Virus record (IMG/VR): IMGVR_UViG_3300011242_000001
Location: 50,439 to 114,438 of that record
Source: a virus
Taxonomy: Duplodnaviria; Heunggongvirae; Uroviricota; Caudoviricetes
Direction: 5' to 3' (one strand)
Length of the DNA: 64,000 nt
The notes under the pieces are model-generated. The model did not search any database. It saw nothing but the letters and a program-made list of their open reading frames with translations, and was not told the DNA's origin. Both the position numbers and the translations under genes were made by a program. Shown in pieces: positions 2,803 through 51,141 of this stretch (position 1 is the stretch's first letter; each line of letters begins with the position of its first letter).

Positions 2803-4104
2803 TTATTTTTTCATTGCGATACGTTGGCTATCGGTTTTGACAATCTTTTTATAATTGTCTTGTAAATCTTTTAAGCGAGTAACTGCTTTTTCGCGCTCAC
2901 TCACACCCTGTTGCTGAATTTGAATTACTTCATTAACAGTTTTAATTAATGTACTTTGTACATATTCTAAAGTTGATACGTCAATAACTGAACGTTGGTT
3001 TGCTTTAGCCGTACTTACAGAGTTGGTGTGCAATAAGTCTGCATTACGTTTAAGAATTTCATTTGTAGCGTCATCAATAGTATTCGCTAATTGAACACTA
3101 TTCTTTTGCTCATTCAATGAAATCGCAAGTGTAATCTGGTTTTTCCATGCTGGAATCGTGATATTTTTGATTGCATAGAACTTATCAACAAGCATCAAAT
3201 TGTTTGCTTGAATAATACGAATCATTGGCAATGTCTGTAATGCTGATTGCTGTAATACATGAAGATCGTGTAAACGCTTTTCTAAGTTATTGCAAACATG
3301 GTTCAAGTCATAAATACGTTGAATTACATTTTGATCTTGTTGATTGCCATTAGATAAATCTTTAATTTCGTCTTTAAGTTCTTGTAACTTTAAATGGCCT
3401 GCTGCAATATGTAGACCTAATGAACGATAATCGTTGTTTACATTGTCAAACATATTATCGAGTAAGTGGACACGATTAGTAAGGCCAGATTGATTGGTTT
3501 CAATTTCACTTACAAGCGCTTTAATTTGTTCTTCTGTAGTATTAAATTTAGTTAAGAAATTATTACGAGCTTTTTCAACAGATTTAAATAATCCACCAAT
3601 AATTGGTAAGCGCGAAAATGAGCTTTGTTTACCAATAAAGTTGCTGCTATTAATACCTTTAGCTACATGAATAACCTGGTTTAATTTTTCGCCGGTTTGA
3701 TCAATGTCTTTATTGTTTACTAAACCCAAAATTTCTGATGTACAGTCATTTGTAGCTGATGAAATATCTTTACCATATTCAGCAACTGCTAATGCATCCA
3801 TTGGACCTAATTTATTTTTTAGTTCCATTACATCTTTTACATCAGCGTCAGTCAAGCCAAGATCAACCAAATTCAATTTTGATGCAGCGAGATCCAAATT
3901 TTTAATTGCCGGCAATGCAGGTTCTTCATTTACAGATTTAAGAATTTGATTATTTACATCTTGCTGAATAGCCGATGGCTCGTCTGCAACAATAACGTCC
4001 ACTTTACCAGTCTCAGATTGAGACATAGCAGCGCGTTCTTTCAATAGTTTTTCTAGTAAAGCGTCGGTTTGTTCTTTATTAAGATCGTTAATTGATGATA
4101 CCAT
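2803..4104 (-). CDS. putative TelA/KlaA-like (toxic anion resistance family) protein
   Basis: 433-aa, largely alpha-helical/coiled-coil protein with overall resemblance to the TelA family; assignment from memory is tentative. Confidence 0.35.
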   Translation of the reverse strand: MVSSINDLNKEQTDALLEKLLKERAAMSQSETGKVDVIVADEPSAIQQDVNNQILKSVNEEPALPAIKNLDLAASKLNLVDLGLTDADVKDVMELKNKLGPMDALAVAEYGKDISSATNDCTSEILGLVNNKDIDQTGEKLNQVIHVAKGINSSNFIGKQSSFSRLPIIGGLFKSVEKARNNFLTKFNTTEEQIKALVSEIETNQSGLTNRVHLLDNMFDNVNNDYRSLGLHIAAGHLKLQELKDEIKDLSNGNQQDQNVIQRIYDLNHVCNNLEKRLHDLHVLQQSALQTLPMIRIIQANNLMLVDKFYAIKNITIPAWKNQITLAISLNEQKNSVQLANTIDDATNEILKRNADLLHTNSVSTAKANQRSVIDVSTLEYVQSTLIKTVNEVIQIQQQGVSEREKAVTRLKDLQDNYKKIVKTDSQRIAMKK

Positions 4105-4175: not shown

Positions 4176-5711
4176 TTACAATAAATTATAAACTTTGTTA
4201 AATTCATCATTATTGATTTTCATATTCATTTCAATTGCAGGTTTTAAGATTTTTTCAATCGCTGTAAACTTGTCAATCAAAATACCAATATTGTTTTTAG
4301 CTAGCTCATATTGCATTGCTGTTGTACGTGACAATGTTTGAGCCGCCAATAAATCATTTTTTCGTCGTAATAAACGTTGCTTATCACTATCCGAATATTG
4401 ATCATCTTGCATATAAGATTCTAATAATTTGATATCTTCATCAAATTGTGTATGTAAATCTTTTAATGAATCATATAATTTAGCAAATGATTCATATTGA
4501 TTGGATAATACAGTTACTAAATTACTGCCTTTGTCTAATAAATTTTCGAAGTCAATAACTGCAATTGTAATATTGGCCTTAATTTCAATGTCTGATTTAA
4601 ATATTTTGCCCCAAAAGCCAATAGTAGAATACTTTTTATATTTTTCTACTGCAGATTTAAGATTTACAATTACACTACTCATTCTTTCCAGGTTATCACT
4701 AGTAATTTCCATGGTAATTGTATTCATTTTATCGATAGTTGTTACACCAACTGCAAAAATACCGGTATTTGTATCCATATCTATTTCAGCCTTTTCTATT
4801 TGTTCATCAACAACTGTATTGTCGGGCTCTTTAAAAGTACCCATTAAGTTGTTATATTGTAGACTGTTTATAATAAGTTCGTACATACGTGGGCTAACAT
4901 AAAACTTAATTATTCTATCAAATAATTTTTTATGTTGCTCATTTAGCATAAAGTAGTCATATTCAATGCATCTTAATATAAAAACTCTAATGGCAGATAA
5001 ATCATTAGATCCACCTGTCATGTATATAAATGGAATATACTTATTTTGATTTAAAATAGATTCTATCTTATCTGGTCTAATGTCATCATTTAAAAATTCA
5101 GATATAAAGTTACAGTAATCGATGAGACCTTTATAGTCATCATTTACATAAAATCTTAAATTAATGATATCATTAATAATAGCAATATGTTTATGTAAAT
5201 CCCTACTTCTAGTTTGTTGTAAATTTCGCACATAACTTGAAATATATCCATCATTATAGCCAAACCCACTAATTTTATCTAAATTTTTAAATATGTCATT
5301 TATTGAAAGTGTGTTATACGTATGAAAATATGCAACTGTTTCCGAAGTAGGCTTCGTTTCATACATTGGTAAATGTAAAATAAAATCTTTGCTTATAAGT
5401 TTTGAAAATGTATGATATGTATAAATTTGATTAATATAATTGCGATATATTGTATCAGCAACATGATTTAAATCTTTTGCTTTGGTTGTTAAACAATATT
5501 TTAAAATTAAGGCCATACGTTTATGTAATGAGCTATTATCATCATACGAAATCGGATTTACAACAGCTGCATAAATATCGCCTAAAGCGGGCTTTAGATC
5601 ATTAGGTAAAGAATTAAAATGATATTCAATTTTGTCAGTCAAATAAAAGTTTTCATCACGAATATCGTAATGTATAAAAGATAGAAAATAAAAATATACA
5701 TGCATATTCAT
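4176..5711 (-). CDS. large hypothetical protein (511 aa)
   Basis: Long uninterrupted ORF directly upstream of the TelA-like gene on the same strand. Confidence 0.5.
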   Translation of the reverse strand: MNMHVYFYFLSFIHYDIRDENFYLTDKIEYHFNSLPNDLKPALGDIYAAVVNPISYDDNSSLHKRMALILKYCLTTKAKDLNHVADTIYRNYINQIYTYHTFSKLISKDFILHLPMYETKPTSETVAYFHTYNTLSINDIFKNLDKISGFGYNDGYISSYVRNLQQTRSRDLHKHIAIINDIINLRFYVNDDYKGLIDYCNFISEFLNDDIRPDKIESILNQNKYIPFIYMTGGSNDLSAIRVFILRCIEYDYFMLNEQHKKLFDRIIKFYVSPRMYELIINSLQYNNLMGTFKEPDNTVVDEQIEKAEIDMDTNTGIFAVGVTTIDKMNTITMEITSDNLERMSSVIVNLKSAVEKYKKYSTIGFWGKIFKSDIEIKANITIAVIDFENLLDKGSNLVTVLSNQYESFAKLYDSLKDLHTQFDEDIKLLESYMQDDQYSDSDKQRLLRRKNDLLAAQTLSRTTAMQYELAKNNIGILIDKFTAIEKILKPAIEMNMKINNDEFNKVYNLL

Positions 5712-11082: not shown

Positions 11083-11104
11083 ATTAAGAATGACAGGAGC
11101 AAAC

Positions 11105-12352
11105 ATGAATACTCAAATTTCAGATTTGAAATTTCAAATAACACAGCTGCAGCAATCTATTAAAGATTTAGATGATGAGTGTGAACGATATTCAGCAATG
11201 GAACAAGCCGTAAAGATTGTTTTAAACGGTGGATATGGAGCATTAGGGGCAGCTGCATTTAGATGGTATGACGAAACAATTGCGGAAGGTATTACTGCAA
11301 CCGGCCGTGTCGGAATACAATATATTACTAAAAAAATTAATGAATTTGTAAATGAGAAAGCCGGAACAGCCGGCATCGACTATGTTGTAAGTTCTGATAC
11401 AGATTCAGTTTATTTTGAAGTTGACGCAATTGTAAAACATAGATGGCCCGAAGTTACCGATAAACAGCAAATTACTGATTTAGTAAATGAATTTGCTGAA
11501 AATGAAGCTGGACCATATATTGATCAATGCTATAAAGATCTTTCCGATTATCTAAATTGCGACGTAAATTTATTAGATATGAAGCGCGAAGCAATTGCTG
11601 ATACATTTATTATCAGGGCCAAGAAAAATTATATCATGCGAGTATTTGATAATGAAGGAATTCGTTATGCTGATCCGTATTATAAAATGATGGGTATTGA
11701 AGTTGTTCGTACATCTCACCCACAAATGATTCGTGACGCTTTAGAGGATACTTTAAAGATGGTAATTGAAGGATCAGTTGAACAAGTTCGATCATATGTA
11801 AAAGAATTTAAAGCAAAGTTTATGAATTCGCCATTAAATCAGATTGCTGCACCCCGCGGTATTTCCGATATTACAAAATATATGAATAGCGAAGATTATT
11901 CAATTAAAGAATTTGAATATGTTACTAATGAATTTGGTAATAAAGTTAAATCTAAAATTACTATTCCAATTCATGTAAGAGCTGCTATTAATTATAATTA
12001 CCTAGTTAATAAATATAAGTTATCAAATAAATTTGAATTTATTAAAAACGGTTCTAAAATTAAATTTTTGCCATTAAAAGAGCCGAATCCAATTAAGAGC
12101 CATGTAATTGGATTCATTGATAATATTCCAACTGAATTTGGTTTAGATGAGTTTATTGATAAAGAAGCTCATTTTAATAAAATGTTCATTAGTCCGCTAG
12201 AAACTTTCTTAATTTATAATGGATGGACAATCCAGGAAAATACCTTATTAGATATGTTCGGATCATCCGATATTGATATGGCGACAGCTGCAATTAATAC
12301 AAAGAAAAAGACAATAAAAAAAGTCGATAAAAAGACAACTTCATTGTTTTAA
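11105..12352 (+). CDS. 43: family-B DNA polymerase, C-terminal fragment (gp43 part B: fingers motif B, palm motif C, thumb)
   Basis: KIVLNGGYGALG (motif B, KxxxNSxYG) and VVSSDTDSVYFEV (motif C, DTDS) align to T4 gp43 INSLYGALGN...YGDTDSIYVS; GGAG RBS before ATG; N-terminal 40 aa heptad-like (QISDLKFQITQLQQSIKDLDDE). Confidence 0.85.
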   Translation: MNTQISDLKFQITQLQQSIKDLDDECERYSAMEQAVKIVLNGGYGALGAAAFRWYDETIAEGITATGRVGIQYITKKINEFVNEKAGTAGIDYVVSSDTDSVYFEVDAIVKHRWPEVTDKQQITDLVNEFAENEAGPYIDQCYKDLSDYLNCDVNLLDMKREAIADTFIIRAKKNYIMRVFDNEGIRYADPYYKMMGIEVVRTSHPQMIRDALEDTLKMVIEGSVEQVRSYVKEFKAKFMNSPLNQIAAPRGISDITKYMNSEDYSIKEFEYVTNEFGNKVKSKITIPIHVRAAINYNYLVNKYKLSNKFEFIKNGSKIKFLPLKEPNPIKSHVIGFIDNIPTEFGLDEFIDKEAHFNKMFISPLETFLIYNGWTIQENTLLDMFGSSDIDMATAAINTKKKTIKKVDKKTTSLF

Positions 12353-17210: not shown

Positions 17211-18236
17211 ATGATGAATATTTTAAATTTATCGGCTAAAGATATTTTAGCGATTAAAATATTTTCTGAAATGTTCACCGGAACAGAAGATGAAAATAAA
17301 AAAACATATCGTATGCTTTTAAAAAAATGGCATCCAGATATGAATAGTACGGATACAAGCGATGTATTTGTACATATTACACAATTGTATGATAGCTTAT
17401 CTATTAATATAATTCCGAAATCTGTAGAGATTAACGGCAAGTCATATGATTATATATATGATGTTGTAAAAGATTTATATACAATTTACTATACTGATAA
17501 TGGTACAGGATTTTTAATTAAGTTCAATCAAAAAGCAGATGGACTTAAACAAAATTATAAATCTAATTTAACTAAGCTTCAATCTTTATTGAAAAATCAT
17601 AAATTTGAAGATCGTTATAAAGATTTGTTATCTTGTAATATTTATGAAAATAAAGAATTTGCAAAAATCAGAGTACCTGCAGGTTATGTTCCTTTAAACC
17701 TGGCTTTAAAATATATTATATCTTTTAAAGATTGGAAAATTTCAGCATACATTATTTCGCGTTTATATGATACAGCGTTATTGTATAAAAATGCAGGTCT
17801 ATCATGTATCGGATTTGATCCTGATTTTATCTTTTTAGATACTAAAAAACATCAAATTATTGATTTATCAGCATTATTTTTCTCTACTGAGAGCAATAAA
17901 TCTTTAAGTCTTGCACTTACTCCAATGCAAGCATCCGCATTTATTAAAGATGACCTACAAAATAAAAAGTGTAGTGATGATTCTATTAATAGTATGATTA
18001 ATTCATTAGGCTTAATGTTATCAGGTGATTTAAATCGATTTGGTAATATTAATGTATTAGATGATTCTGCAAATAAAGAAATGGTTAAAATTATTAGTGG
18101 TATTGGTATTAATGTTCCAATTCGCAATAATTATGAAGCATGGCAAACTAAACTAGTACAACGTATTTTTAATGAAAGATCTTTTTATAAAAAAGAAATT
18201 GTATTTGGTGATTTAACAAAATATATTGGTAATTAA
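17211..18236 (+). CDS. J-domain (DnaJ-like) protein
   Basis: N-terminal segment KKTYRMLLKKWHPDMN...QLYDSL matches the J-domain helix II/III with an invariant HPD tripeptide; 341 aa. Confidence 0.6.
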   Translation: MMNILNLSAKDILAIKIFSEMFTGTEDENKKTYRMLLKKWHPDMNSTDTSDVFVHITQLYDSLSINIIPKSVEINGKSYDYIYDVVKDLYTIYYTDNGTGFLIKFNQKADGLKQNYKSNLTKLQSLLKNHKFEDRYKDLLSCNIYENKEFAKIRVPAGYVPLNLALKYIISFKDWKISAYIISRLYDTALLYKNAGLSCIGFDPDFIFLDTKKHQIIDLSALFFSTESNKSLSLALTPMQASAFIKDDLQNKKCSDDSINSMINSLGLMLSGDLNRFGNINVLDDSANKEMVKIISGIGINVPIRNNYEAWQTKLVQRIFNERSFYKKEIVFGDLTKYIGN

Positions 18237-20747: not shown

Positions 20748-21941
20748 ATGAACGTTGTTGTAATCGGCGCCAACTATGGTGATGAAGGTAAAGGTCGTAC
20801 TGTTGATTTTCTTGCCAAAGACTTTTGTGGGCTTGAAAATCGACCTACTCTGAATGTAAGATTTTCTGGTTCAAATAATGCAGCACATACCGTATGGCAT
20901 AATAATACATCATTTGTATTTCATATGTTAGGGGCTGCTTCTTTTCGTGGGCATCCAACATATTTGAGTCAACATGTTGTTGTTGATTTTGTTGCACTAG
21001 AAACAGAAATTAATGAATTTGAAAAAATTACTGGATTTAAACCAGTCGTTTATGTCGATCCGCGGTGCCGTATTAATCTGCCATATGATGTAATGAAAAA
21101 CCGTATTAAAGAAATTCTTAAAGGTAATGATAAACACGGTTCAACTGGTAATGGTCTAAATGAAACTATTGACCGGCATCAACGTCTTCCAATTTTAGCA
21201 GGTACATTTGAATTTGCATTACCTATGTTAATTCTCACACAAAGTGATTTTCAGCAATTTGTTGAAACTGAGTTAAAGGATATTGAATTAGAATATCGAC
21301 ATAAAGACTTTATTGAATTTTTATGTGAGAAAAATTCAGTATCGTTTATTTTTGATAAAATTAGACATATCCTTAATAATCATCCTCAAATTGTATGCGA
21401 TACACCAAATCTTAAAATTTATAACTGTATCTTTGAAGGGAGTCAAGGGTTAGCTTTAGATGAATATAGCAAATTTTTTCCTCATGTAACTCGTACACGT
21501 ACTGGTACAACAAATGTAATAGATTTATGCCGTGAGCATGATATTGTAATTGACAATGTATATTATGTATCACGACCGTATTTCAGCCGTCATGGTGCAG
21601 ACAAATACTTTGAAGAATTTGATAGAATTAGTGACGTTTATAACATTGTAGATGAAACTAATATACCAAATGACTGGCAAGATAATTTAAAATTTGGTAT
21701 TTTAAATGTAACTGAAATGGATGAACGTATTAATGATGACTTTAAAATCATTAAAAATTTATTCCCAAATGTAAATAAGCAGCTGGTGTTTACTTGTATG
21801 GATCAATGTGGCGGTGGGTCTGGTATTTATATTCGTAACGGTCGACTATATCAAACAAGCGATCTAATAAATTCATTAAATTTATATTATAGATTTAGTG
21901 ATATTAAACCAATCTTTTTTGATAATAAGGAAAATATATAA
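20748..21941 (+). CDS. adenylosuccinate synthetase (PurA) family homolog; candidate PurZ-like enzyme
   Basis: N-terminal NVVVIGANYGDEGKGRTVDFL matches the PurA P-loop GDEGKGK; GSNNAAHTV matches GGHNAGHT; FEGSQGLALDE matches FEGAQGTLLD; the C-terminal region is divergent; 397 aa. Confidence 0.65.
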   Translation: MNVVVIGANYGDEGKGRTVDFLAKDFCGLENRPTLNVRFSGSNNAAHTVWHNNTSFVFHMLGAASFRGHPTYLSQHVVVDFVALETEINEFEKITGFKPVVYVDPRCRINLPYDVMKNRIKEILKGNDKHGSTGNGLNETIDRHQRLPILAGTFEFALPMLILTQSDFQQFVETELKDIELEYRHKDFIEFLCEKNSVSFIFDKIRHILNNHPQIVCDTPNLKIYNCIFEGSQGLALDEYSKFFPHVTRTRTGTTNVIDLCREHDIVIDNVYYVSRPYFSRHGADKYFEEFDRISDVYNIVDETNIPNDWQDNLKFGILNVTEMDERINDDFKIIKNLFPNVNKQLVFTCMDQCGGGSGIYIRNGRLYQTSDLINSLNLYYRFSDIKPIFFDNKENI

Positions 21942-22834: not shown

Positions 22835-24769
22835 ATGTTTTATACATCAGTTGTAAAAATGGGAAATAATATTATTCACCGTTATATCAAAGATGGAAAG
22901 CGTTATCAAGAAATTATTAAGAATTTTGATTATGATTTATATGTGCGAAGCGAATATTCGCGAGACGCTTTAGATGTACATAAAAACCATTTAAAACGTT
23001 ATAATTTTGACAATATTTATGATATGAGTCAATTTATTAATGAAAATGGTAATGACAATGTTTATGGTAATACTGATCCAGTAACACAATTTATAGCAAA
23101 AACATATCCTGATGAAATTAAATTAACTAATGATTATGTAGTTCTAAACTTCGATATTGAGACCGAACACGGCGAAGGCTTTATCAAATATAAAGACCCT
23201 CATATTATCCAGGTTCAAGAAGATAAAAATGAACCAATTAAAATGGCATTGGGTGAATTTAAAAAGATCGATCTAAATGTACATGAATATCATGTATATG
23301 ATGAAGAAAAAAAAGATTGGCTTCTTTATGAAAATTCATGTTATGCGCCGCAACAACTAGGATTCCCAGACCCAAATTTAGCTTTATACCAGGTAATGTC
23401 GGTATCATTAATTTCATCTTTAGAAAATATAATTTATGTATATGGTACTAAAGAATTTAAAGGTGCACGCACAATTGAAGGATCTGATTATACTATTCGT
23501 CATATTTATTGCGCAAATGAAAAAGAACTTTTAGTTAAATTTATTCAGAAATGGCGTGAAATTAAACCTGATATTTTAACTGGCTGGAATGTTGAAGGAT
23601 TCGACGTACCATATATTATTAATCGTATTGTGCGTGTACTTGGTAAAAAGTTTGCTAATATGCTTAGCCCATTTGCTAATGAATCACAAAACTGTATTCG
23701 CGAACGCCAAAAAGAAGATGCCGTTTATTATAGTATTTCAGGTATTACCATTTACGATTACCTGTCTGTATATAAAAAGTTCTCGCGTGAAAAACGTGAA
23801 AGCTATAAATTAGACTGGATTGGTAAAGTAGAAGTAGACCATCAAAAGATTTCATATGACGAATATGATAATTCACTAATGAAATTATGGGAATACGATT
23901 ATGATAAATTCATTCTATATAATGCTATCGATACATTAATTGTTAATAAGCTAGATAAGAAATTAAAGTTTATTAATCTTGCAATTACGATTGCTCATAT
24001 TACTAAATCAGATTTAAGTGATGCTTTAGGTACCATTAAAATTTGGGATAATATGATTTATAACTTACTACGTAAGCGCGATATTCAAATTCCACCAAAT
24101 ATCAAACAAGAAAAATCTAAAGAATTCTTGGGTGCATTTGTAAAAGAGCCATTACTTGGTCGACATGGTTGGACTTTAACATTCGATTTAACATCGCTAT
24201 ATCCAAGTATTATTCGTATGTTAGGTATGTCACCGGAAACACTTATTGATCGTGAAATTGGTAATGATTTCACTGCAAATAGTGCCGTGCGAAAAGTTAT
24301 TAAATCCAATATGGATATTGTTGCCAATATTATTATGGACGGTGAATTTGGCACAGATAATGAATTATCAGAAGATTTATATATTCTTAAACGATTTGAA
24401 TCAGCCGATGTTAATAAAATTAAATCATTAGATAAAAATACAATGATTTATGTTTTACAAGAATTACGTCGGGCAGATGAATATTATAATTCTGGTCATA
24501 ATCATATTCATGGTGTTAAAACAGTATTAGAAAATGTTGAAAACTTTATTAATATGGTGACCGATCTTTCTTGGGCTAAAGAAAAAAATGTCACTGTAGC
24601 AGGTAATGGTTCAACATATGATAAATCCACTGAAGGCGTAATTCCTGAAGCGATGACTCACTTATTCAATTACCGTAAACTACTTAAGAATAAGATGAAG
24701 GAAGAAAAGAAAAAATTACAGCTAAAAATTGAAGAGCTACATAAGTTAGAATCACAGCTAACATCTTAA
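22835..24769 (+). CDS. 43: family-B DNA polymerase, N-terminal fragment (gp43 part A: 3'-5' exonuclease domain and palm motif A)
   Basis: MFYTSVVKMGNNIIHRYI matches T4 MKEFYISIETVGNNIVERYI; FDIETE exo I; LTGWNVEGFDVPYIINRI matches LTGWNVESFAIPYVYNRI; GAFVKEPLLG...FDLTSLYPSIIR matches GAFVKEPIP...FDLTSLYPSIIR (motif A); ends with a coiled-coil-like tail KKKLQLKIEELHKLESQL; GGAG RBS. Confidence 0.85.
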   Translation: MFYTSVVKMGNNIIHRYIKDGKRYQEIIKNFDYDLYVRSEYSRDALDVHKNHLKRYNFDNIYDMSQFINENGNDNVYGNTDPVTQFIAKTYPDEIKLTNDYVVLNFDIETEHGEGFIKYKDPHIIQVQEDKNEPIKMALGEFKKIDLNVHEYHVYDEEKKDWLLYENSCYAPQQLGFPDPNLALYQVMSVSLISSLENIIYVYGTKEFKGARTIEGSDYTIRHIYCANEKELLVKFIQKWREIKPDILTGWNVEGFDVPYIINRIVRVLGKKFANMLSPFANESQNCIRERQKEDAVYYSISGITIYDYLSVYKKFSREKRESYKLDWIGKVEVDHQKISYDEYDNSLMKLWEYDYDKFILYNAIDTLIVNKLDKKLKFINLAITIAHITKSDLSDALGTIKIWDNMIYNLLRKRDIQIPPNIKQEKSKEFLGAFVKEPLLGRHGWTLTFDLTSLYPSIIRMLGMSPETLIDREIGNDFTANSAVRKVIKSNMDIVANIIMDGEFGTDNELSEDLYILKRFESADVNKIKSLDKNTMIYVLQELRRADEYYNSGHNHIHGVKTVLENVENFINMVTDLSWAKEKNVTVAGNGSTYDKSTEGVIPEAMTHLFNYRKLLKNKMKEEKKKLQLKIEELHKLESQLTS

Positions 24770-28630: not shown

Positions 28631-28829
28631 TCATAGAATTATTAGATTTTTAAAAGTATATTCTATTTTTAATGGTGGTATATATGATGAGTCGACAAAA
28701 AATTTGTCGGACCATTATGAAATATATATAGATATATATCCAGAAGAATCTAATAATCCTAAACAAGAATTCGATCAAATGAAAGAATTTATATTAGCAA
28801 AAAAATGGAACACATATGCGAAACGTTAA
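28617..28829 (+). CDS. small hypothetical protein
   Basis: 70-aa ORF overlapping both neighbours. Confidence 0.3.
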   Translation: MKMNNHRIIRFLKVYSIFNGGIYDESTKNLSDHYEIYIDIYPEESNNPKQEFDQMKEFILAKKWNTYAKR

Positions 28830-29343
28830 ACAATTAATTACTAGTATTGAATCTGGTAATGATCACGAATATATTTATTTTTGGGGACACCAAGGTAGTA
28901 AAAAAGGTTGTTTAAGCCAATGGTTTGAATCAAGTTTTGTTATTAATGGTGTAACATATAAAACAGCTGAACATTGGATGATGGCTCAAAAAGCCAGACT
29001 ATTCGGCGATGCCACATTAGCAAATCAAATTGTACAATGCAGACACCCGCGTGATGCAAAACAATTAGGGCGGGCCGTTAGAAAATTCAATAATGATATT
29101 TGGAATAAACATAAATTTGCATATGTTGTCGATGGTAATATCGCTAAATTTCAGCAAAATCCTTCACTAAAGAAATTTTTATTATCTACTGGTAATAAAG
29201 TGATTGTAGAGTCATCTCCTGTTGATTCTATTTGGGGTGTTGGTTTGCATATGACAAATCCTGATATTAATAATCCTACTAAATGGAAAGGCGAAAATTT
29301 ATTAGGATTTGCTTTGATGGAAGTTCGGGAACAATTAAAATGA
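28816..29343 (+). CDS. NADAR (YbiA-like, DUF1768) domain protein
   Basis: FWGHQ...SQWF...TAEHWMMAQKARLFGD...LGRAVRKF...SPVDSIWGVG...GENLLGFALMEVR matches the YbiA/NADAR pattern along its length. Confidence 0.65.
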   Translation: MRNVKQLITSIESGNDHEYIYFWGHQGSKKGCLSQWFESSFVINGVTYKTAEHWMMAQKARLFGDATLANQIVQCRHPRDAKQLGRAVRKFNNDIWNKHKFAYVVDGNIAKFQQNPSLKKFLLSTGNKVIVESSPVDSIWGVGLHMTNPDINNPTKWKGENLLGFALMEVREQLK

Positions 29344-29750
29344 GTAATCGTGAACATTATCAAATAGAAGCAAATGAATATTTTAATAAGCCCTTTAATA
29401 TAGATGACTTTATTGAAAAACTTTGCTCATACGATGATAAATGGGCGTGGGTAATTTTTGTAGGTAATTTCACGCGTTATGTTGATTCCAGAAGTTTTTG
29501 GGAGTTCATGTTCCTGGGTGAAGAGCCTAGCGACAATCATAAGCAAAATACCAAAATTGATATTATCAAAGAATTTATGATTAAAATCATGAATCAAGAT
29601 AATATCTACCTATTACAATTTGTAATTACAGGTCTTGCCCCTATACGATATTATGTTCGTGAAGAATATAAACAAATGCAATTGGATTTTAATAAAATAG
29701 TCAATAAAAACTGTTTTACTAATATACATTTATATACAAGAGTTAATTAA
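29340..29750 (+). CDS. hypothetical protein
   Basis: ATGA overlap with NADAR; 136 aa from this start. Confidence 0.4.
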   Translation: MSNREHYQIEANEYFNKPFNIDDFIEKLCSYDDKWAWVIFVGNFTRYVDSRSFWEFMFLGEEPSDNHKQNTKIDIIKEFMIKIMNQDNIYLLQFVITGLAPIRYYVREEYKQMQLDFNKIVNKNCFTNIHLYTRVN

Positions 29751-29879
29751 ATTAGAATTAGATAATATTAAATCTAAACTAACTCAAATAATACCGCATT
29801 AATAAAATTTAAAAATGTATATACATTTTTAAATTATTGTATTATAATTTCTTTATTATATGTACAAAGAGATTATACT

Positions 29880-30116
29880 ATGACTCGTCAAGAATTTTAT
29901 GAAAAATATAAAGATGTTGAATTTACCTTAAACGGATATAACAAATATGTTTTTACGTTTGTTGGTGATTACAATGGCCAAACGGTTTATGTTGGTGTTG
30001 GCGGTAATTCAGATTCAATTTACCGCCAGGAATTTGCAGTTGATTGTAAAGAATCAATTGAAAGTTTAGAGCCTTTTGAAGGTCAATGCGGCGACGATTC
30101 ATTCTACGATTATTAA
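29880..30116 (+). CDS. small hypothetical protein
   Basis: 78-aa ORF. Confidence 0.4.
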   Translation: MTRQEFYEKYKDVEFTLNGYNKYVFTFVGDYNGQTVYVGVGGNSDSIYRQEFAVDCKESIESLEPFEGQCGDDSFYDY

Positions 30117-30126
30117 GGATTTTATA

Positions 30127-30417
30127 ATGTATATTTTTCGATATAGTTATGAAGGTGCCTGGAATAATACATGCATTAAATATGCGGATGAATTGACCAC
30201 TGAAAATGTTAAAAAGTTTTTATTAAGTCTTCCACCATTTAAAGAAAATTGGACTACTGAATATGAAACTAAATTTATGGATCAAATTGATATATATCAA
30301 GTTGATGAAAATTTTGTTATAAGCTCATACGATGAGGATGGCGATTTATTTTTAAAAATTGAAGATGAAAATTGCGATAATCATTGGTGTTTTGTTAAAA
30401 AAATAGAGCCCGTATAA
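30127..30417 (+). CDS. hypothetical protein
   Basis: AAGGA RBS before ATG; the track ORF from 30076 uses a TTG. Confidence 0.4.
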   Translation: MYIFRYSYEGAWNNTCIKYADELTTENVKKFLLSLPPFKENWTTEYETKFMDQIDIYQVDENFVISSYDEDGDLFLKIEDENCDNHWCFVKKIEPV

Positions 30418-30428
30418 GGAAAAACCCT

Positions 30429-31031
30429 ATGTTCGATTTATTTTTACACCATCAAAACATGCCATTTAGTATTGCAATTGCAGTCGCATTATTAATTGGT
30501 CTTGTTGAAATCATTAGTCTATTATTAGGCGGATTAGTTAGTATTGATAGTATTATCCCTGAAAAAGATATTGGGGTTGATGCAGATATTAATGGATTTT
30601 CAGTTGTCGATTATCTTTGTATCGGTAAAATACCATTATTAATGTGGTTAGTTGTATTTCTATTGTCATTTGGTATTATTGGTATTATTTTCCAATCAAT
30701 ATTTGCATTAAATTCAACAGTTGCTGCTATTATTGTATTATTCATCTCTGCATTCCCTGTTCGATATATATCGTTATTGTTGCAAAAAATTGTTCCTAAA
30801 GATGAAACAACTGCAATATATGATATTGATTTTATTGGATATAAAGCGGAAATTATCCTTGGTACTGCACGTCGTAATTATCCAGCCCAAGCTAAGTTTA
30901 AAGATGTTCACAATCAAACACATTATGTAATGGTTGAACCTTTATCAGATACAGATGAATTTGTTACTGGTGATACTGTTGTCTTATATGAGAAAAAAGG
31001 CACAATTTTTCTTGTATCGGATTATAAATAA
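30429..31031 (+). CDS. NfeD/YqiJ-like membrane protein (TM helices plus C-terminal OB-fold)
   Basis: Three to four hydrophobic helices followed by a beta-rich C-terminus; located immediately upstream of a flotillin gene, as in the bacterial yqiJ-yqiK / nfeD-floT pairs; AAGGA RBS. Confidence 0.5.
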   Translation: MFDLFLHHQNMPFSIAIAVALLIGLVEIISLLLGGLVSIDSIIPEKDIGVDADINGFSVVDYLCIGKIPLLMWLVVFLLSFGIIGIIFQSIFALNSTVAAIIVLFISAFPVRYISLLLQKIVPKDETTAIYDIDFIGYKAEIILGTARRNYPAQAKFKDVHNQTHYVMVEPLSDTDEFVTGDTVVLYEKKGTIFLVSDYK

Positions 31032-31121
31032 ACTTTTTTAAAAATATATGTGTACATATATGTTAAATTATATTATAAATGTACACACAATTTAACGTAA
31101 CTTACAAACAAGGTTAATATT

Positions 31122-32903
31122 ATGCCAAATCTTATGAACATTTTAATTATTGCGGGAATTATCGTCGCTGGTATTATTATCATGGGTGTCATTATCGCCC
31201 GACTATATAAGCGCTCAACAAAAGAAGTTTCTTTCGTTCGTACCGGTTGGGGCGGAGAAAAAGTAATTCTAAATGGTGGTGCAGTCGTTCTACCAGTATT
31301 GCATGAAATTATCAATGTAAATATGAATACACTTCGTCTTGAAGTATCACGTATTAATGAACAATCATTAATTACTAAAGATCGTATGCGTGTTGATGTT
31401 CAAGCTGAATTCTACGTTCGTGTTAAACCAACTGCTGAATCTATTGCTGCAGCTGCACAAACATTAGGTCGTAAAACAATGTCTCCACAAGAATTGAAAA
31501 ATCTTGTAGAAGGTAAATTTGTTGATGCTCTTCGCTCTGTAGCAGCTGAAATGGATATGGAAGAATTGCATGAAAAACGTACCGACTTTGTTCAAAAAGT
31601 ACAGCAAGCTGTTACTGAAGACTTAACTAAAAACGGTCTTGAACTTGAAACTGTATCTCTTACTGGTCTTGACCAAACTGATGTACGTCATTTCAATCCT
31701 CAAAACGCATTTGATGCTGAAGGTCTTACTAAACTTACTGAAACAATTGAAGATCGTCGTAAAAAACGTAATGAAATTGAACAGAATACTGATCTTGCGG
31801 TTAAAACCAAAAATCTTGAAACTGAACAAGCTCGTCTGCAAATTATTCGTGAAGAAGAATATGCTAAGATGGAACAACAACGCGAACTATCTAATCGTCG
31901 TGCTGCTCAACAAGCTGAAATTGCAATGCAAGAAGCTGAAAAGCAACGTGAATCTGAAGAAGCTCGTATTGCTGCACAGCGTGAAGTTGAATTAAAACAA
32001 ATTGCTGCTCAACGTGATATTGATAATGAAAATATCTTAAAAGAGCAACAAATTCAAAAAGCGAAAGTTGAACAAAAGAAAACTATTGAAATTGCTGAAC
32101 AAGATAAAGCCATTGCGATCGCTCAAAAATCACAAGCTGAATCTGAAGCAAAAGCAAAAGCTGACTTGGCACGTGCCGAAGCAGTAAAAGCTGAAGAAGA
32201 AGTAATCACAGTTCGCCAAATCCAACAAGCAGAACGTCAAAAATCTGTAGAATTGGTACAAGCCAAAGAAAAAGCTGAAAAAGAAGCGATTGCAATTACT
32301 GTTGCGGCTGAAGCAGATAAAAAAGCTGCTACTGACCGTGCTGAAGCTACTCAAATTGCATCATCTGCACAAGCTGAATCGATTCGTATTGCTGCTAAAG
32401 CAAATGCTGATAAAGAAGCGATTGCAATCACTGTAGTTGCAACTGCAGAAAAAAATGCAGCTCAAGCTCGTGCTGATGCTCGATTACTTGAATCTAAAGC
32501 TCAATCTGAATCTGAAATTCTTCTTGCTGATGCGGCAGAACGTAAATATGCAGTTGATGCAGCTGGTAAACGCGAATTGAACGAAGCGGATAACTTACTA
32601 TCTGCAGAACAAATCGCAATGAAAATTAAGCTTGAACTTATCAAAGCTCTTCCAGAAATTATCGCTCAAAGCGTTAAGCCAATGGAAAACATTGAAGGTA
32701 TCAAAATTCTACAAGTTAATGGTCTAACTGGTGGCCAATCTGGTGGTGATACTGTTGAAGGTGAATCTACTAACTTGGCAGATCAAATGACTAACTCAGC
32801 ACTTCGATACCGTGCGCAAGCTCCATTAGTTGATTCACTAATGACTGAACTTGGTATCAAAGGTGGTGACATCAACGGTTTTACTAAAGGTCTAAATGAC
32901 TAA
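31122..32903 (+). CDS. flotillin-like SPFH/band-7 protein (YqiK/FloT family)
   Basis: N-terminal TM helix; SPFH core (EVSFVRTGWGGEKVILNGGAVVLPVLHEI...RVDVQAEFYVRV); about 300 aa of Ala/Glu/Lys-rich coiled coil (AEAKAKAD, EKAEKEAIAIT repeats); 593 aa. Confidence 0.7.
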   Translation: MPNLMNILIIAGIIVAGIIIMGVIIARLYKRSTKEVSFVRTGWGGEKVILNGGAVVLPVLHEIINVNMNTLRLEVSRINEQSLITKDRMRVDVQAEFYVRVKPTAESIAAAAQTLGRKTMSPQELKNLVEGKFVDALRSVAAEMDMEELHEKRTDFVQKVQQAVTEDLTKNGLELETVSLTGLDQTDVRHFNPQNAFDAEGLTKLTETIEDRRKKRNEIEQNTDLAVKTKNLETEQARLQIIREEEYAKMEQQRELSNRRAAQQAEIAMQEAEKQRESEEARIAAQREVELKQIAAQRDIDNENILKEQQIQKAKVEQKKTIEIAEQDKAIAIAQKSQAESEAKAKADLARAEAVKAEEEVITVRQIQQAERQKSVELVQAKEKAEKEAIAITVAAEADKKAATDRAEATQIASSAQAESIRIAAKANADKEAIAITVVATAEKNAAQARADARLLESKAQSESEILLADAAERKYAVDAAGKRELNEADNLLSAEQIAMKIKLELIKALPEIIAQSVKPMENIEGIKILQVNGLTGGQSGGDTVEGESTNLADQMTNSALRYRAQAPLVDSLMTELGIKGGDINGFTKGLND

Positions 32904-32914
32904 TAAAGCAAAAT

Positions 32915-32946
32915 AAAAAAAAGGACCGCAAGGTCCTTTTTTTATG
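32915..32946. terminator. bidirectional rho-independent terminator (GGACC-gcaa-GGTCC)
   Basis: Hairpin flanked by an A8 run and a T9 run between convergent genes. Confidence 0.6.
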
Positions 32947-33415
32947 CTTTTTTAATAGATTTAACTATATTATATTCGGATTTAGTCGCTAATAATACAG
33001 TTTGCGGTGTTAAATGACCATTTGAATTTTTATAACTTAAAGATATTGTTCTACTATATCCGTATGTATCAGATGATTTTCCTTCTTGATGAGCAATCAA
33101 TGCGAAAGTATGAGCTCCTTTCTTATTTTCATTTGAGTCAACTAATTCATATCCTTTTTTAAGTAATTCAGCCGGCTTAGCCGATTTTAATACAGAAGAC
33201 TCTTCAATTGAATCTAAGAAATCACTATAATTATCCCATTTTGCATCAGATTTATTTTGTACTTTACTTTGTACTATATAATTAAAACCTTCTACTACGG
33301 CTTTAACTATTGTACCGTCATCTAATTCAATAGTTAATAGATCACCTTTATTGTAATTTGTAAATTTTACACTTTTATCATTCGATGATTCATTTAAAAA
33401 TTGTTCAAAATTCAT
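32942..33415 (-). CDS. putative capsid-targeted internal protein (CTS family), 157 aa
   Basis: N-terminus MNFEQFLNESS matches the window-wide MxFxxFLNE motif, which is analogous to the T4 CTS MKTYQEFIAE. Confidence 0.5.
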   Translation of the reverse strand: MNFEQFLNESSNDKSVKFTNYNKGDLLTIELDDGTIVKAVVEGFNYIVQSKVQNKSDAKWDNYSDFLDSIEESSVLKSAKPAELLKKGYELVDSNENKKGAHTFALIAHQEGKSSDTYGYSRTISLSYKNSNGHLTPQTVLLATKSEYNIVKSIKKA

Positions 33416-33486
33416 TTTTTATTGCTCAATAATATTTATATATATATATTTATATAATAAAATAACTTTTAATTAAGATTTAAAAA

Positions 33487-33510
33487 GGATGCAATATGCA
33501 TCCTTTTTTT
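33487..33510 (-). terminator. rho-independent terminator (GGATGCA-tat-TGCATCC)
   Basis: Hairpin with flanking A/T runs after the minus-strand gene 33512..33763. Confidence 0.5.
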
Positions 33511-33511
33511 A

Positions 33512-33763
33512 TTACTTATCGCTAAAGTGTTCAGCGATATATGATTTTAAATCTTCATTATCATCACATATATAAGTATCAAGATGTTTTTCACCTTTAA
33601 AGAGAATACATTCATATTCTCCTTTGTCAAATTCAGTAATATATAAAGAATGTGTGGAATTAGTAATTAAAGTTGCTTTACCAGTATGTACTTTTGCGGT
33701 GCTAGGTACTGCAGATTTAATAGCCGAAGTTGTAATTTCATTTAGGAAGTTAGTGAAGCTCAT
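33512..33763 (-). CDS. putative capsid-targeted internal protein (CTS family), 83 aa
   Basis: N-terminus MSFTNFLNEITT. Confidence 0.5.
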   Translation of the reverse strand: MSFTNFLNEITTSAIKSAVPSTAKVHTGKATLITNSTHSLYITEFDKGEYECILFKGEKHLDTYICDDNEDLKSYIAEHFSDK

Positions 33764-33856
33764 TTTTTATCTCTTTATTTACGTTATTATATTATTTTAT
33801 TTAATAGAGTTTTTTTTATTAAATAATAAAAAACCCCATACCAAAGGTATTAACAA

Positions 33857-34588
33857 ATGAATTTTGAACAATTTTTAAATGAAGCATCACCCGCGCGTGA
33901 ACGTACTGCTCGACTCACTTTTTCTAAAAAAGTAGCTGACGGGCTTGATAAAGCAGCGGGCGACCCAGAAAAAGAACGTCGCTTCGGTAAAGCTATTTTT
34001 AAAGAAATGTATAAAAAATATGGCGTCGGCTATGATCATTTATTAGATTCACTTGAAGGATCAACAGCTGAAAAATTAGAACAAGCAAATGCATGGGCTG
34101 CTTTAGAAGGTGTTCGCGATTTTTATGCTGAAAAAGGTGATACAAAAACAGCAGAATCTTATCAACGTACAATTGATAAAATGGATCGTGAAACTACTAC
34201 TAAAACCGGATCGGCTGCTTTAATTAAAAATATTATTGCGGCAATTAAACCAGGCGGTAAGTTTAACGAATTTGCCGAATATGATACTAACAAATTTGAT
34301 ATTGTTTTCCCAAAACATAGTCCAAAAACCACTGAAGTTAAAGAATCTGTTAGTAAAGCAACAGCGAACTTATATTTTCAGCATAAAACTACTACATATA
34401 AAAAAGTAAGTACAATATCATATATGGCGAATATTATTATTGCTTATAATGGACCTCGTGCTGGTGAAATTATGCATATCATTTATAATGATAACGGCGT
34501 CACAAAAATTAAAACATTCGGTACGGAAAATTTATTAGATGACGCTTTAAAAGGTACATTTAATAATAAAACGATTACAAAAGTTTAA
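33857..34588 (+). CDS. putative capsid-targeted internal protein (CTS family), 243 aa
   Basis: N-terminus MNFEQFLNEASP. Confidence 0.5.
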   Translation: MNFEQFLNEASPARERTARLTFSKKVADGLDKAAGDPEKERRFGKAIFKEMYKKYGVGYDHLLDSLEGSTAEKLEQANAWAALEGVRDFYAEKGDTKTAESYQRTIDKMDRETTTKTGSAALIKNIIAAIKPGGKFNEFAEYDTNKFDIVFPKHSPKTTEVKESVSKATANLYFQHKTTTYKKVSTISYMANIIIAYNGPRAGEIMHIIYNDNGVTKIKTFGTENLLDDALKGTFNNKTITKV

Positions 34589-35994: not shown

Positions 35995-36411
35995 TTATGC
36001 GTCTTTTTCTTCGGTTGGTTTTAAATCTTCAATCAATTCACCAAGGTAACCATATAATTCATCTTTACCAAATTTCTTCTCTAATTCAGTAATGAACGCT
36101 TCAATATCTTTACCACCACCAGTAATAGGAGCGCCTTCATCGTCATTCACATCAACATCGCCATCTTGTGAAATACCAGCTTCTACTGTTACTGTACCCG
36201 TTTTGCCATCTTCAGTTGTAACTTCAAATTTAACTTTAGCTAAGTGGACTAATTCATCACCACCAAACTCATCATATGCTTCATCAGCATCGCCGTCAAA
36301 TCCACCAACTAAGCCATAACGAATAAATACATAGCTTTTAGCATATTTAAAAGCATTATCAAAAGCAGCGGTTGCACCTTTTGCTTCATTTAAAAAATCT
36401 GCAAATTTCAT
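35995..36411 (-). CDS. putative capsid-targeted internal protein (CTS family), Gly/Asp-rich, 138 aa
   Basis: N-terminus MKFADFLNEAKG. Confidence 0.5.
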   Translation of the reverse strand: MKFADFLNEAKGATAAFDNAFKYAKSYVFIRYGLVGGFDGDADEAYDEFGGDELVHLAKVKFEVTTEDGKTGTVTVEAGISQDGDVDVNDDEGAPITGGGKDIEAFITELEKKFGKDELYGYLGELIEDLKPTEEKDA

Positions 36412-39702: not shown

Positions 39703-40668
39703 ATGACAACTATTACATTAAACGAGTCTTTATCATTTGTAGATACTTCTAATCATCGACAAATTGAAGCAAGTCGTATTGCAAAATATTTCCCAGTAAA
39801 GCGTCATACAAAGCTTGACTATATTAAAGGTTCTATTGACACACTTAATTTAAAAAATCATGGCTTATTTGGTCTTATTTCTCATGCTTATACATATCAT
39901 AAGCCATTAACTATTAATCCAACTGATGTATGGATTTTAATTCTATCTCAATTTAAAACTATTATTAAAGATAATGCGGAAACATATCGCCACTTATTTA
40001 CCGATTCACCGGACAAAAAAACATTGGCTGTACCAACTAATAGTTTATATGAATTGCCAGTTGATCTATTAATTAAAACTCTTAATGAATATATTAATTT
40101 CGATTCTAAATTAATTCAAGTTGAATTTAGTACAGATACAGCCATTGCAAATGAAGTGAAAAACCACTTGCTATTGGACATGGCATCTCCATATTACAAT
40201 TATGCAATGTTTCTATGCGGCATTCCATCTATTAAAATCGGTGGTCATGTAGAAGATTGGGAGCGATTATACAGCGCATTCTTAAAGTTAAATGAAGTAT
40301 TCTATCTTAAAGAAGAAGATGAATATTTGTTATGGCAATGTTCTGTAACTCATATTCTTGATATTCTATTAATGGCGTCTCAAGGCAATTATGATATTGA
40401 TTTTTTCCGCGATATCTTTACACAGAAAAATATTGGTTCTGGTGGAGAATTGGAAATTAAGGGATGGATTACTAATCTATTCTATAAAATGCCGAAAGTA
40501 GCTAAAATTGAAAACTTTAATTCACATGTATCTTGTGTAGAATATAAGAATTTAACAACCCAAAAAGAATATGTAATGATTTCAGGTGGATTTAGTTATA
40601 CACTTGATGAAGATGGCTATCATGCGTTATCTTATTCAAAACATATCTTTGAAATTATAACGGTATAA
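39703..40668 (+). CDS. hypothetical protein (321 aa)
   Basis: Long ORF. Confidence 0.5.
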   Translation: MTTITLNESLSFVDTSNHRQIEASRIAKYFPVKRHTKLDYIKGSIDTLNLKNHGLFGLISHAYTYHKPLTINPTDVWILILSQFKTIIKDNAETYRHLFTDSPDKKTLAVPTNSLYELPVDLLIKTLNEYINFDSKLIQVEFSTDTAIANEVKNHLLLDMASPYYNYAMFLCGIPSIKIGGHVEDWERLYSAFLKLNEVFYLKEEDEYLLWQCSVTHILDILLMASQGNYDIDFFRDIFTQKNIGSGGELEIKGWITNLFYKMPKVAKIENFNSHVSCVEYKNLTTQKEYVMISGGFSYTLDEDGYHALSYSKHIFEIITV

Positions 40669-50352: not shown

Positions 50353-51141
50353 ATGAGAATGACTGAAGAACAATTGAATAAAGCATACTTTGAATGCTAT
50401 ACCGGCATGATTACGTCCACTTCTAATGAAGAACGCGGTATCGGTAACGGTAAAAATATTTCTGTTGCTAAATTACCATATGGTAAATATATTATTAGAA
50501 ATGGTCGAAAAGATATTATTTCTTATAAGATGCCAAACGATGATACTTTATATAATATGGGTGCAAAACATCTTATTTTAAATGAAATACCATCATCATT
50601 TTATGTACATGAATTGGTTACATCTGACGATTTAAAACCAGGATATGATATTACTCCGTCTGAAATATCAGTTAATCATAAAATTAATAAAATCAGTAAT
50701 GATTTAATTTTTAATGTCAAGCAAGATGTTATTGATAGATTTTTTATTACCGATTCATATCAAAATGATATACCGAATGGCTATTTATATAAAGCTGAAA
50801 TTGAAGAAAAATTAGTAAAATATGCGGTATATAACGCGGCAACTAGATCAGTTAATTTTGAATTTTATATCGTAGATGGCGACCCTATACAAGCATATAA
50901 AATACCAAATTCTTTTTATTCATCTGATAATCCTAATGTAATTTTTACAAATAACATTTATAGACTTAAAGGCTCAATGCAATCAGCATTAAATTATATT
51001 GAACGTTATATTGATAAACAATCAATTGTTCGTCGATCAATATTACAAAGTAATGTCAAATCACTTGTAAATAATAAAATTAATTTGATGACAAATGAGC
51101 AAATCGATAATTTAGTAAAATATGTTAATGAATTAGTATAA
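50353..51141 (+). CDS. hypothetical protein
   Basis: 262-aa ORF. Confidence 0.45.
   Translation: MRMTEEQLNKAYFECYTGMITSTSNEERGIGNGKNISVAKLPYGKYIIRNGRKDIISYKMPNDDTLYNMGAKHLILNEIPSSFYVHELVTSDDLKPGYDITPSEISVNHKINKISNDLIFNVKQDVIDRFFITDSYQNDIPNGYLYKAEIEEKLVKYAVYNAATRSVNFEFYIVDGDPIQAYKIPNSFYSSDNPNVIFTNNIYRLKGSMQSALNYIERYIDKQSIVRRSILQSNVKSLVNNKINLMTNEQIDNLVKYVNELV

Follow-up and report, generated by a model that had tools for sequence, protein, structure and literature searches.

A phage-encoded yqiJ-yqiK gene pair

In a 64,000-nucleotide (nt) stretch of Caudoviricetes DNA (positions 50,439 to 114,438 of IMG/VR record IMGVR_UViG_3300011242_000001; the whole stretch is referred to below as the window), we examined two adjacent genes on the same strand, the first of which, yqiJ, encodes a small membrane protein and the second, yqiK, a full-length flotillin (Table 1). 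The yqiJ stop codon ends at 31031 and yqiK starts at 31122, so that yqiJ lies directly upstream of the flotillin gene. A first reading of this DNA (the original prediction) had proposed that these two open reading frames (ORFs) reproduce the bacterial nfeD-flotillin operon. Both were confirmed in the ORF list, and the domains, folds, gene order and phage context described below all agree with that proposal.

Table 1. Features of the yqiJ-yqiK locus and copies of its promoter class in the window (aa, amino acids; TM, transmembrane; AF2, AlphaFold2)
Feature	Position	Strand	Details
Promoter, phage-specific class	29820..29848	+	TGTATATACA palindrome at -35, N17, TATAAT; 61 nt before first gene
Small ORF, 78 aa	29880..30116	+	First gene of putative transcription unit; ORF list
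Small ORF, 96 aa from ATG or 113 aa from TTG at 30076	30127..30417	+	Ends 11 nt before yqiJ
yqiJ	30429..31031	+	200 aa; predicted 3-TM inner-membrane protein with C-terminal NfeD-type OB domain
yqiJ TM1	30450-30524	+	AF2 model
yqiJ TM2-3	30636-30791	+	AF2 model
yqiJ OB domain	30831-31022	+	Pfam, AF2 model
Variant promoter-like element	31051..31079	+	TGTACA-N17-TATAAA; in 90-bp yqiJ-yqiK spacer, 72 nt (scan's count) before yqiK
yqiK (yqiK-type flotillin)	31122..32903	+	593 aa; Pfam, PDB sequence match, fold search
yqiK TM anchor	31134-31202	+	
yqiK SPFH/Band-7	31242-31667	+	
yqiK coiled coil	31707-32591	+	
yqiK Flot domain	32496-32858	+	
Tandem duplication in distal coiled coil	32265..32528	+	Two 44-residue units; alignment and self-alignment
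Duplication unit 1	32265-32396	+	aa 382-425
Duplication unit 2	32397-32528	+	aa 426-469
Bidirectional intrinsic terminator	32916..32943	.	12-bp stem, T runs on both sides; between convergent yqiK and ORF 32942-33415 (-)
Promoter-class copies (starts)	15374, 20325, 20688, 27035, 29820, 34659, 38576	+	

The 200-aa product had been predicted to carry TM helices and an OB-like domain of NfeD/YqiJ type, and Pfam, an AF2 model and fold matches bore this out. Pfam matched YqiJ_N (E = 2.5e-19, 70 bits against a cutoff of 23) and YqiJ_OB (E = 2.7e-23, 82 bits against a cutoff of 25.4), PF21001 and PF07290 being the YqiJ family profiles. In an alignment of 43 sequences, the protein retained every invariant or near-invariant column of the YqiJ family (P123, D125, E126, T127, A129, H165, Y166, E170 and P171), and the conserved PxDETTA linker and HY..EP motif were present. 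The model from the same alignment, with a predicted local distance difference test score (pLDDT) of 86, placed TM helices at residues 8-32, 70-92 and 96-121 and a beta barrel at residues 139-198. The six best matches to this model in a Foldseek search of the PDB all belonged to the NfeD family (8z5g_AA, 3cp0, 2k14, 3wwv, 2k5h and 2exd), with a TM-score of 0.81 and a root-mean-square deviation of 2.1 A to 3cp0, and included YbbJ of the E. coli QmcA-YbbJ cage (8z5g) and B. subtilis YuaF (2k14), the partner of FloT. Pfam NfeD (PF01957) gave no match to phage YqiJ at E <= 1, and a PHROGs search returned no match for YqiJ. We assign the phage partner protein to the YqiJ branch and not to NfeD sensu stricto, although its predicted OB fold is of the NfeD type.

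The 593-aa product had been described as an anchor, an SPFH/Band-7 core and a coiled coil of about 300 aa rich in Ala, Glu and Lys, like that of YqiK, and its Pfam matches, composition and fold are in keeping with that description. Pfam Band_7 (E = 9e-20, 71.9 bits against a cutoff of 23.6) was joined by Flot (PF15975) at residues 459-579 (E = 5.5e-40, 136.8 bits against a cutoff of 27), and human flotillin-1 matched residues 48-384 in a search of PDB sequences (E = 2e-6). Residues 5-27 are hydrophobic and are followed by RLYKRSTK; residues 196-520 consist of 21% Ala, 15% Glu and 10.5% Lys, and the coiled coil runs for about 300 aa. The AF2 model of the flotillin was poor (pLDDT 62, shallow alignment, monomer), and we therefore limited its use to local SPFH matches and the ranking of matches. 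It contained helices at residues 2-32, 196-350 and 365-490, including two very long ones, and its SPFH core fitted isolated stomatin and flotillin SPFH domains with a TM-score of about 0.7. The fold search, which served as a check on the SPFH assignment, did not refute it: the flotillin-1/2 cages 9bq2 (9bq2_B) and 9l3g (9l3g_A) ranked first, and HflK/C, prohibitin and stomatin followed; one SPFH gene is present here, and the HflK/HflC structures rank below the flotillins. The NCBIfam FloT equivalog (NF058507) stayed below threshold (80.5 bits against a cutoff of 700), and phage YqiK is best described as a flotillin relative, not a FloT ortholog. Chance cannot explain these protein identities, with E-values far under threshold and ~74% identity to bona fide bacterial flotillins. 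From the behaviour of its family, phage YqiK would be expected to form oligomers or cages.

The pair resembles bacterial flotillin-NfeD operons

YqiJ has been described as the NfeD-type partner of the SPFH2 flotillin YqiK (PMC2636767), and a Band-7/flotillin protein together with a 3-TM protein of the YqiJ/YuaF type makes up a widespread, abbreviated envelope-stress operon that is linked to PspA (PMC11237479). SPFH proteins form membrane cages with NfeD docked (8z5g; PMC13086221), and in S. aureus the FloA-NfeD pair, which matters in energy-depleted cells, keeps unfolded membrane proteins stable without ATP (PMC11222466).

Among cellular systems, Acinetobacter yqiJ-yqiK has the same gene order and domain architecture as the phage pair (YqiK ~74% and YqiJ ~42% identical). 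The phage pair differs from it in having a 90-bp spacer with a promoter-like element instead of a tight operon junction, a YqiJ with shorter periplasmic or loop regions than cellular YqiJ, a 44-aa duplication in the coiled coil and phage-like codon usage, and in being carried by a lytic-type T4-related phage. The named prototype, of the SPFH2 subfamily, is E. coli YqiJK, whose YqiK is ~50% identical to the phage protein. B. subtilis FloT-NfeD2 (YuaG-YuaF) and S. aureus FloA-NfeD likewise join a flotillin and a small NfeD-type OB membrane partner in one operon but are Gram-positive and distant from the phage pair; the mechanism of FloA-NfeD is the best available functional model (PMC11222466). 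As a structural model, E. coli QmcA-YbbJ (8z5g) and the flotillin-1/2 cages (9bq2, 9l3g) offer a cytoplasmic cage with docked NfeD, with the differences that QmcA, an SPFH1 protein of stomatin type, lacks the long coiled coil of flotillins, and that eukaryotic flotillins are only about 19% identical to the phage protein.

The original prediction had also pointed to SPFH/NfeD pairs in defence islands. The defence models of PADLOC-DB v2 matched neither YqiJ nor YqiK at E <= 0.01, which gives that idea no support.

The operon traces to an Acinetobacter lineage

A phylogeny had been suggested as a way to identify the donor of the pair, and ours points to the Acinetobacter lineage. The closest cellular relatives of the phage flotillin are chromosomal Acinetobacter YqiK proteins, full length, at 70-75% identity (~70% in BLAST and ~74% over aligned columns). 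Neighbour joining, with bootstrap support counted over the bipartitions of 500 replicates, placed the phage flotillins in one clade (97%) that grouped with Acinetobacter YqiK at 100%; outside that group fell Psychrobacter (63% identity), an Immundisolibacteraceae metagenome-assembled genome, E. coli YqiK (50%) and the Sinorhizobium phage Phosso (43%). The closest cellular relatives of phage YqiJ are also from Acinetobacter, at only ~42% identity, which indicates that the operon was captured as a unit; the same adjacent yqiJ-yqiK pair is found on the Acinetobacter chromosome and likewise in E. coli. The GC content at third codon positions (GC3) of phage yqiK is 16.5%, compared with 16-24% in other phage genes and 37.7% in the Acinetobacter gene. 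This phage-like GC3 indicates that the transfer is old and the gene fully ameliorated, which in turn rules out contamination or a chimeric assembly. These data point to a single, old capture of the operon from the Acinetobacter lineage by the ancestor of the phage clade. With flotillin, YqiJ and the TelA described below all tracing to Acinetobacter, these genes are the best available pointer to the host, and Acinetobacter is the probable host.

Some short GenBank "phage" records also matched YqiJK (1.5-2.8 kb, unannotated; contigs of "Acinetobacter phage MD-2021a"). They resemble host fragments, and we set them aside as evidence. Two contigs of only 3 kb (L044 and L045, with flotillin P0053) carry a further yqiJ-yqiK branch, with 31% GC, a GC3 of 9.7% and overlapping genes; this branch has the coiled-coil duplication plus an extra 22-aa insert, and probably represents another phage lineage.

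Selection and a clade-specific duplication

Against five related phages, the ratio of nonsynonymous to synonymous substitution rates (dN/dS) was 0.08-0.19 for yqiK and 0.19-0.33 for yqiJ, figures that are rough because dS nears saturation in the deeper comparisons. When genes common to the window and each of four related loci were ranked by identity, the flotillin came 4th of 29, 2nd of 10, 1st of 10 and 1st of 5, and it stood above the family-B polymerase exonuclease gene (PolB-exo) wherever both were present. Purifying selection on phage yqiK is strong. Identity between phage and host YqiK is unevenly spread, with 84% in the SPFH domain, 79% in the first coiled coil (CC1) and 89% in the hinge; divergence is seen in the Gly-rich linker, in the distal coiled coil and in the TM anchor, which is down to 59%.

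Within the distal coiled coil lies the tandem duplication listed in Table 1, with a self-alignment score of 100 compared with 35.9 +/- 5.6 for shuffled sequences (z = 11.5) and units that are 68% identical in DNA. The duplication was present in 14 of 15 aligned phage-clade sequences, and its second copy is absent from Acinetobacter YqiK. The sole exception, P0043, has a sister, P0041, with the duplication, so its absence from P0043 is probably a secondary loss. A further 24 residues are found in the aligned flotillin of P0051.

The window belongs to a lineage of very large T4-related phages

At 30% GC, the window encodes a T4-type UvsX, a family-B polymerase in two separated genes, both topoisomerase II subunits, an ATP-dependent ligase, a dCMP-deaminase-domain protein and a Dda/Pif1-like helicase. 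Its UvsX is ~60% identical to that of Enterobacter T4-like phages, and its polymerase reaches at most ~39% identity to any cultured phage. Megablast of window positions 29000-34000 against 50,697 phage records gave no match, and the window phage accordingly has no close cultured relative. We place the window in a deeply divergent, uncultured lineage related to T4.

Flotillins 71-99% identical to that of the window were found on many metagenomic contigs, the largest of 281, 300, 377 and 393 kb. In the neighbourhood comparison, which covers five inspected contigs (393, 300, 281, 11.4 and 6.3 kb), PolB-exo, NADAR, yqiJ, yqiK, RNase T and Hen1/Pnkp formed a common neighbourhood. yqiJ and yqiK were neighbours in every inspected contig, with an extra ORF between them in L004 and L035. 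The clade appears to consist of previously uncatalogued, very large T4-related phages that are missing from INPHARED and, to the extent that peptide-pattern scans can tell, from IMG/VR; an IMG/VR scan with the YqiJ alignment gave no match. A scan of genome contigs, which covered exact peptide patterns only, missed Acinetobacter, and looking up the exact sequence of the window flotillin returned no record.

Hen1-Pnkp RNA-repair genes lie 2-4 kb downstream of yqiK in L004 (13309-16953), L035 (12088-16887) and L037 (7729-11369), together with an RNA ligase in L035; the window and L001 have no Hen1-Pnkp near yqiK. Band-7 proteins are linked to bacterial RNA-repair operons, and the proximity of yqiK to Hen1-Pnkp may or may not be meaningful.

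TelA accompanies the pair in two phage lineages

The window also encodes TelA, a protein of the toxic anion resistance family (2803-4104, minus strand; Pfam E = 4.9e-80), which shares 59-63% identity with chromosomal Acinetobacter TelA and carries an N-terminal extension of roughly 55 aa. Orthologs of this phage TelA were found on the same 148-377 kb contigs as the flotillin. This makes TelA a second, separately located, Acinetobacter-derived membrane-stress gene of this phage. Directly upstream of it, an ORF of 511 aa (4176-5711, minus strand) occupies the position of the XpaC-like gene of Phosso; it had no Pfam match and no detected similarity to XpaC, and the search for an XpaC homolog in the window gave none.

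Phosso (PV764938.1, 469 kb) carried the sole full-length flotillin relative among the 50,697 phage records. Its cluster is contiguous and consists of a YqiJ-family gene, the flotillin, an XpaC-like gene (Halogen_Hydrol) and TelA (L006 4290-8470), and the same four-gene cluster is present on the 465-kb IMG/VR contig 3300034072_000926 (L042 5317-9737). In GenBank, the yqiJ and xpaC genes of Phosso are labelled "hypothetical" and the flotillin "SPFH domain-containing protein". Like the phage of the window, these are jumbo phages in which a YqiJ-family gene directly precedes a full-length flotillin and TelA is also present. They differ in that they are only 39-46% identical to the window's counterparts and fall outside the group of Acinetobacter and the phage clade, which indicates that the acquisition was independent, and in that their four genes are contiguous, with an XpaC-like gene, whereas the window TelA lies 27 kb away. 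Two unrelated lineages of very large phages thus combine a flotillin, an NfeD-like partner and TelA.

Earlier papers already list phage SPFH-domain ORFs, in 2006 for T4-like phages and more recently in genome notes, but offer no functional analysis (PMC1524935, PMC13384950, PMC13239085). These short ORFs (44RR ORF098c, Aeh1 ORF064c, RB43 ORF139c, the PHROG 200 "lipoprotein" and those of phages X1 and GIB1) are known as SPFH/Band-7 hits by description, with no mention of a Flot domain or an NfeD partner. The phrog_200 "lipoprotein" matched the window flotillin weakly and in the SPFH region only (E = 2.8e-9, residues 5-184), which suggests that the short phage SPFH ORFs are a different family and not YqiK-type. 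A 2021 survey of jumbo phages proposed that TelA/Ter genes act against superinfecting phages and made no mention of SPFH, flotillin or NfeD (PMC7824862). In the PMC and bioRxiv full-text papers that we searched and read, which mention SPFH ORFs only at the level of annotation, we found no description of phage-encoded full-length flotillin-NfeD pairs.

Further large viral contigs (L028/L029 9968-11770, from IMG/VR, 364 kb; L030; L032-L034) carry more distant flotillin-like or SPFH proteins, at 22-26% identity, and the YqiJ profile found no YqiJ-family neighbour beside the distant SPFH genes on the L028-L030 and L032-L034 contigs.

Transcription signals around the pair

A promoter motif containing TGTATATACA, a perfect 10-bp palindrome, occurred 15 times in the window compared with 2.9 expected, and 11 of the 15 copies were intergenic, mostly ~60 nt before start codons. 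The palindromic -35 element suggests recognition by a dimeric activator, perhaps an analogue of the MotA box, rather than plain sigma-70 recognition. The copy at 29820-29848 stands in front of three closely spaced genes, two small ORFs and yqiJ, and the product of the second small ORF (30127..30417) is 84.5% identical to its L001 counterpart. Because the same promoter class precedes genes of the replication region, the pair would be expressed before the late genes. The variant element in the yqiJ-yqiK spacer is kept as TTTACA-N17-TATAAA in L001/L002 (relative 92% identical), and a second TGTACA lies at 31080-31085. We also considered the T4 late-promoter motif TATAAATA and rejected it: 24 copies were found in the window where base composition predicts roughly 29, and L001 has not kept the one at 31023.

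What the pair may do for the phage

We suggest that the phage has kept a host-derived flotillin-NfeD membrane-scaffold operon as a functional membrane-maintenance module, a reading that we think has about an even chance of being right; the timing of expression, the formation of a cage and the benefit to the phage are parts of it that we infer. Under this reading, yqiJ and yqiK would be transcribed before the late genes from the phage's own promoter class. The N-terminal helix of YqiK would insert in the inner membrane, and copies of the protein would join by way of the SPFH domain, the long coiled coil and the C-terminal Flot domain, building a cytoplasmic cage or dome against the membrane, with YqiJ beside it and the OB domain docked on the scaffold as YbbJ is on QmcA. 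Such an assembly could stabilise membrane proteins and membrane order under stress, as in the bacterium, so that the inner membrane would stay intact and energised over the course of a long and demanding infection that produces very large virions. The phage copy would serve at a time when host expression, presumably shut off, cannot replace the host's own module, and TelA, separately acquired, may belong to the same membrane-maintenance kit.

Several considerations count against a maintenance role. No growth phenotype has been reported for an E. coli yqiK deletion (PMC2636767), and P. aeruginosa mutants lacking SPFH genes show no pronounced phenotypes (PMC13086221), so that even for bacteria it is unclear what the module brings. 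If the host has YqiJK of its own, the need for a phage copy depends on the assumed shut-off, and it is gene phylogeny alone that points to Acinetobacter as the host and to YqiJK in the actual host strain. The promoter sequence fits early as well as middle, activator-dependent, timing. Lastly, both the fixed duplication in the coiled coil and the fast evolution of YqiJ (42% identity to the host protein, against 74% for the flotillin) hint that the job of the phage pair is not exactly that of the host's.

Other roles would also account for a conserved membrane scaffold. In superinfection exclusion or competition between phages, the flotillin, YqiJ and TelA would alter the inner membrane and so block the DNA entry or establishment of later phages. 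This would be valuable during a long infection cycle, has been proposed for the TelA/Ter genes of jumbo phages (PMC7824862), and is consistent with the probable pre-late expression of the pair, from a promoter class common to replication-region genes, and with its co-occurrence with TelA in two unrelated jumbo lineages. We nevertheless consider it rather unlikely, as the exclusion proteins known so far include no member of the SPFH or NfeD families, PADLOC gave no match, host YqiJK is not known to block phages, and a new anti-phage activity would hardly be expected of an SPFH domain and first coiled coil that are nearly host-like. The module might instead act in counter-defence, by buffering or repairing the inner membrane against abortive-infection (Abi) effectors that depolarise or perforate it. 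Flotillin/NfeD and PspA-linked modules do act in envelope stress and in the stabilisation of membrane proteins (PMC11222466, PMC11237479, PMC8581546), selection on the gene is strong, and jumbo phages have captured membrane-stress genes repeatedly. Yet the idea is wholly inferential: YqiK-type flotillins are not known to repair membranes, we found no link to a specific defence system, and the overlap with the maintenance reading is large, only the stress that is relieved being different; we regard it as unlikely. Flotillins being scaffolds, the phage protein could also provide platforms for steps of the phage's own cycle, such as prohead initiation, replication or packaging complexes, holin control or lysis timing. 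The position of the gene among replication-region genes would suit such a role, and the 44-aa duplication, the divergent TM anchor and the divergent YqiJ suggest an altered assembly. Against it, no phage partner was identified, besides yqiJ we found no membrane gene that is conserved and co-transcribed with the flotillin, and cultured T4-like phages, including those of Acinetobacter, do without the flotillin (Phosso gave the only match among the 50,697 records); we find it quite unlikely.

Interference with the host scaffold, in which the phage protein would co-assemble with host YqiK and its longer coiled coil would poison or re-purpose host microdomains, could explain why the regions relevant to oligomerisation are nearly host-like (SPFH 84%, CC1 79%) while the distal coiled coil has been lengthened. 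A dominant-negative protein, however, would need neither a conserved YqiJ nor a conserved Flot domain, purifying selection extends along the whole protein, and poisoning would gain little where the host flotillin is dispensable, as in the bacteria tested (PMC2636767, PMC13086221), so that interference strikes us as very unlikely. Contamination, too, would produce a gene with high identity to a bacterial one, and the short GenBank "phage" records that match YqiJK do resemble host fragments, but the view of the pair as recently acquired host DNA with no function, or as the product of a chimeric contig, is effectively refuted by its recurrence in the same phage context in many independent assemblies, its phage-like third codon positions, a dN/dS far below 1 over deep divergence, and its own phage-type promoter and terminator.

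A bolder form of these ideas is that very large phages repeatedly and independently capture the host flotillin-NfeD operon and TelA as a membrane-protection kit selected for conflict and not for housekeeping, either a shield for the inner membrane against pore-forming or depolarising Abi effectors or a seal against competing phages, with the lengthened, clade-specific coiled coil giving a phage-specific cage of altered size. We lean against it while keeping it in view; if it were true, SPFH scaffolds would constitute a new class of phage counter-defence or exclusion factor.

Significance of a viral flotillin module

Bacterial flotillins and their NfeD partners are widespread, and because their knockouts often have no phenotype, the function of flotillin-NfeD modules is still debated. 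Across a deep divergence, the virus has kept the pair under stronger constraint than the exonuclease domain of its own polymerase, and infection is evidently a condition in which the module matters. The independent acquisition of the pair by a second, unrelated jumbo lineage, in both cases with TelA, amounts to a natural experiment. These observations suggest that very large phages look after the host membrane during infection. The phage system could make the long-unclear function of bacterial flotillins testable, and it offers a tractable route to the function of flotillin-NfeD, to whether coiled-coil length determines cage size and to whether very large phages need to maintain the host membrane actively.

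Host-derived auxiliary genes are common in large phages, and the molecular system found here is itself known, both proteins showing the testable features of YqiJ and of a YqiK-type flotillin. What is new is the context and the pattern, namely a virus-borne, constrained, host-derived pair, a clade-specific duplication and a convergent association with TelA in a second lineage. This context is apparently undescribed.

Other genes of the window

The two polymerase genes lie ~10 kb apart with their halves in reversed order: the palm/thumb half comes first (11090-12352, plus strand), and the exonuclease plus N-terminal palm follows (22835-24769, plus strand). The exonuclease half is conserved in related contigs. 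Auxiliary genes on the plus strand encode an adenylosuccinate synthetase (20748-21941), a NADAR protein (28816-29343), a DUF4419 protein (39703-40668) and a DnaJ-domain protein (17211-18236); the NADAR gene, a little way upstream of yqiJ, is kept there across the clade. Just downstream of yqiK, small paralogues occur on both strands (32942-33415, minus; 33512-33763, minus; 33857-34588, plus; 35995-36411, minus) and have a common N-terminal motif, MNFEQFLNE / MSFTNFLNE / MKFADFLNEA.

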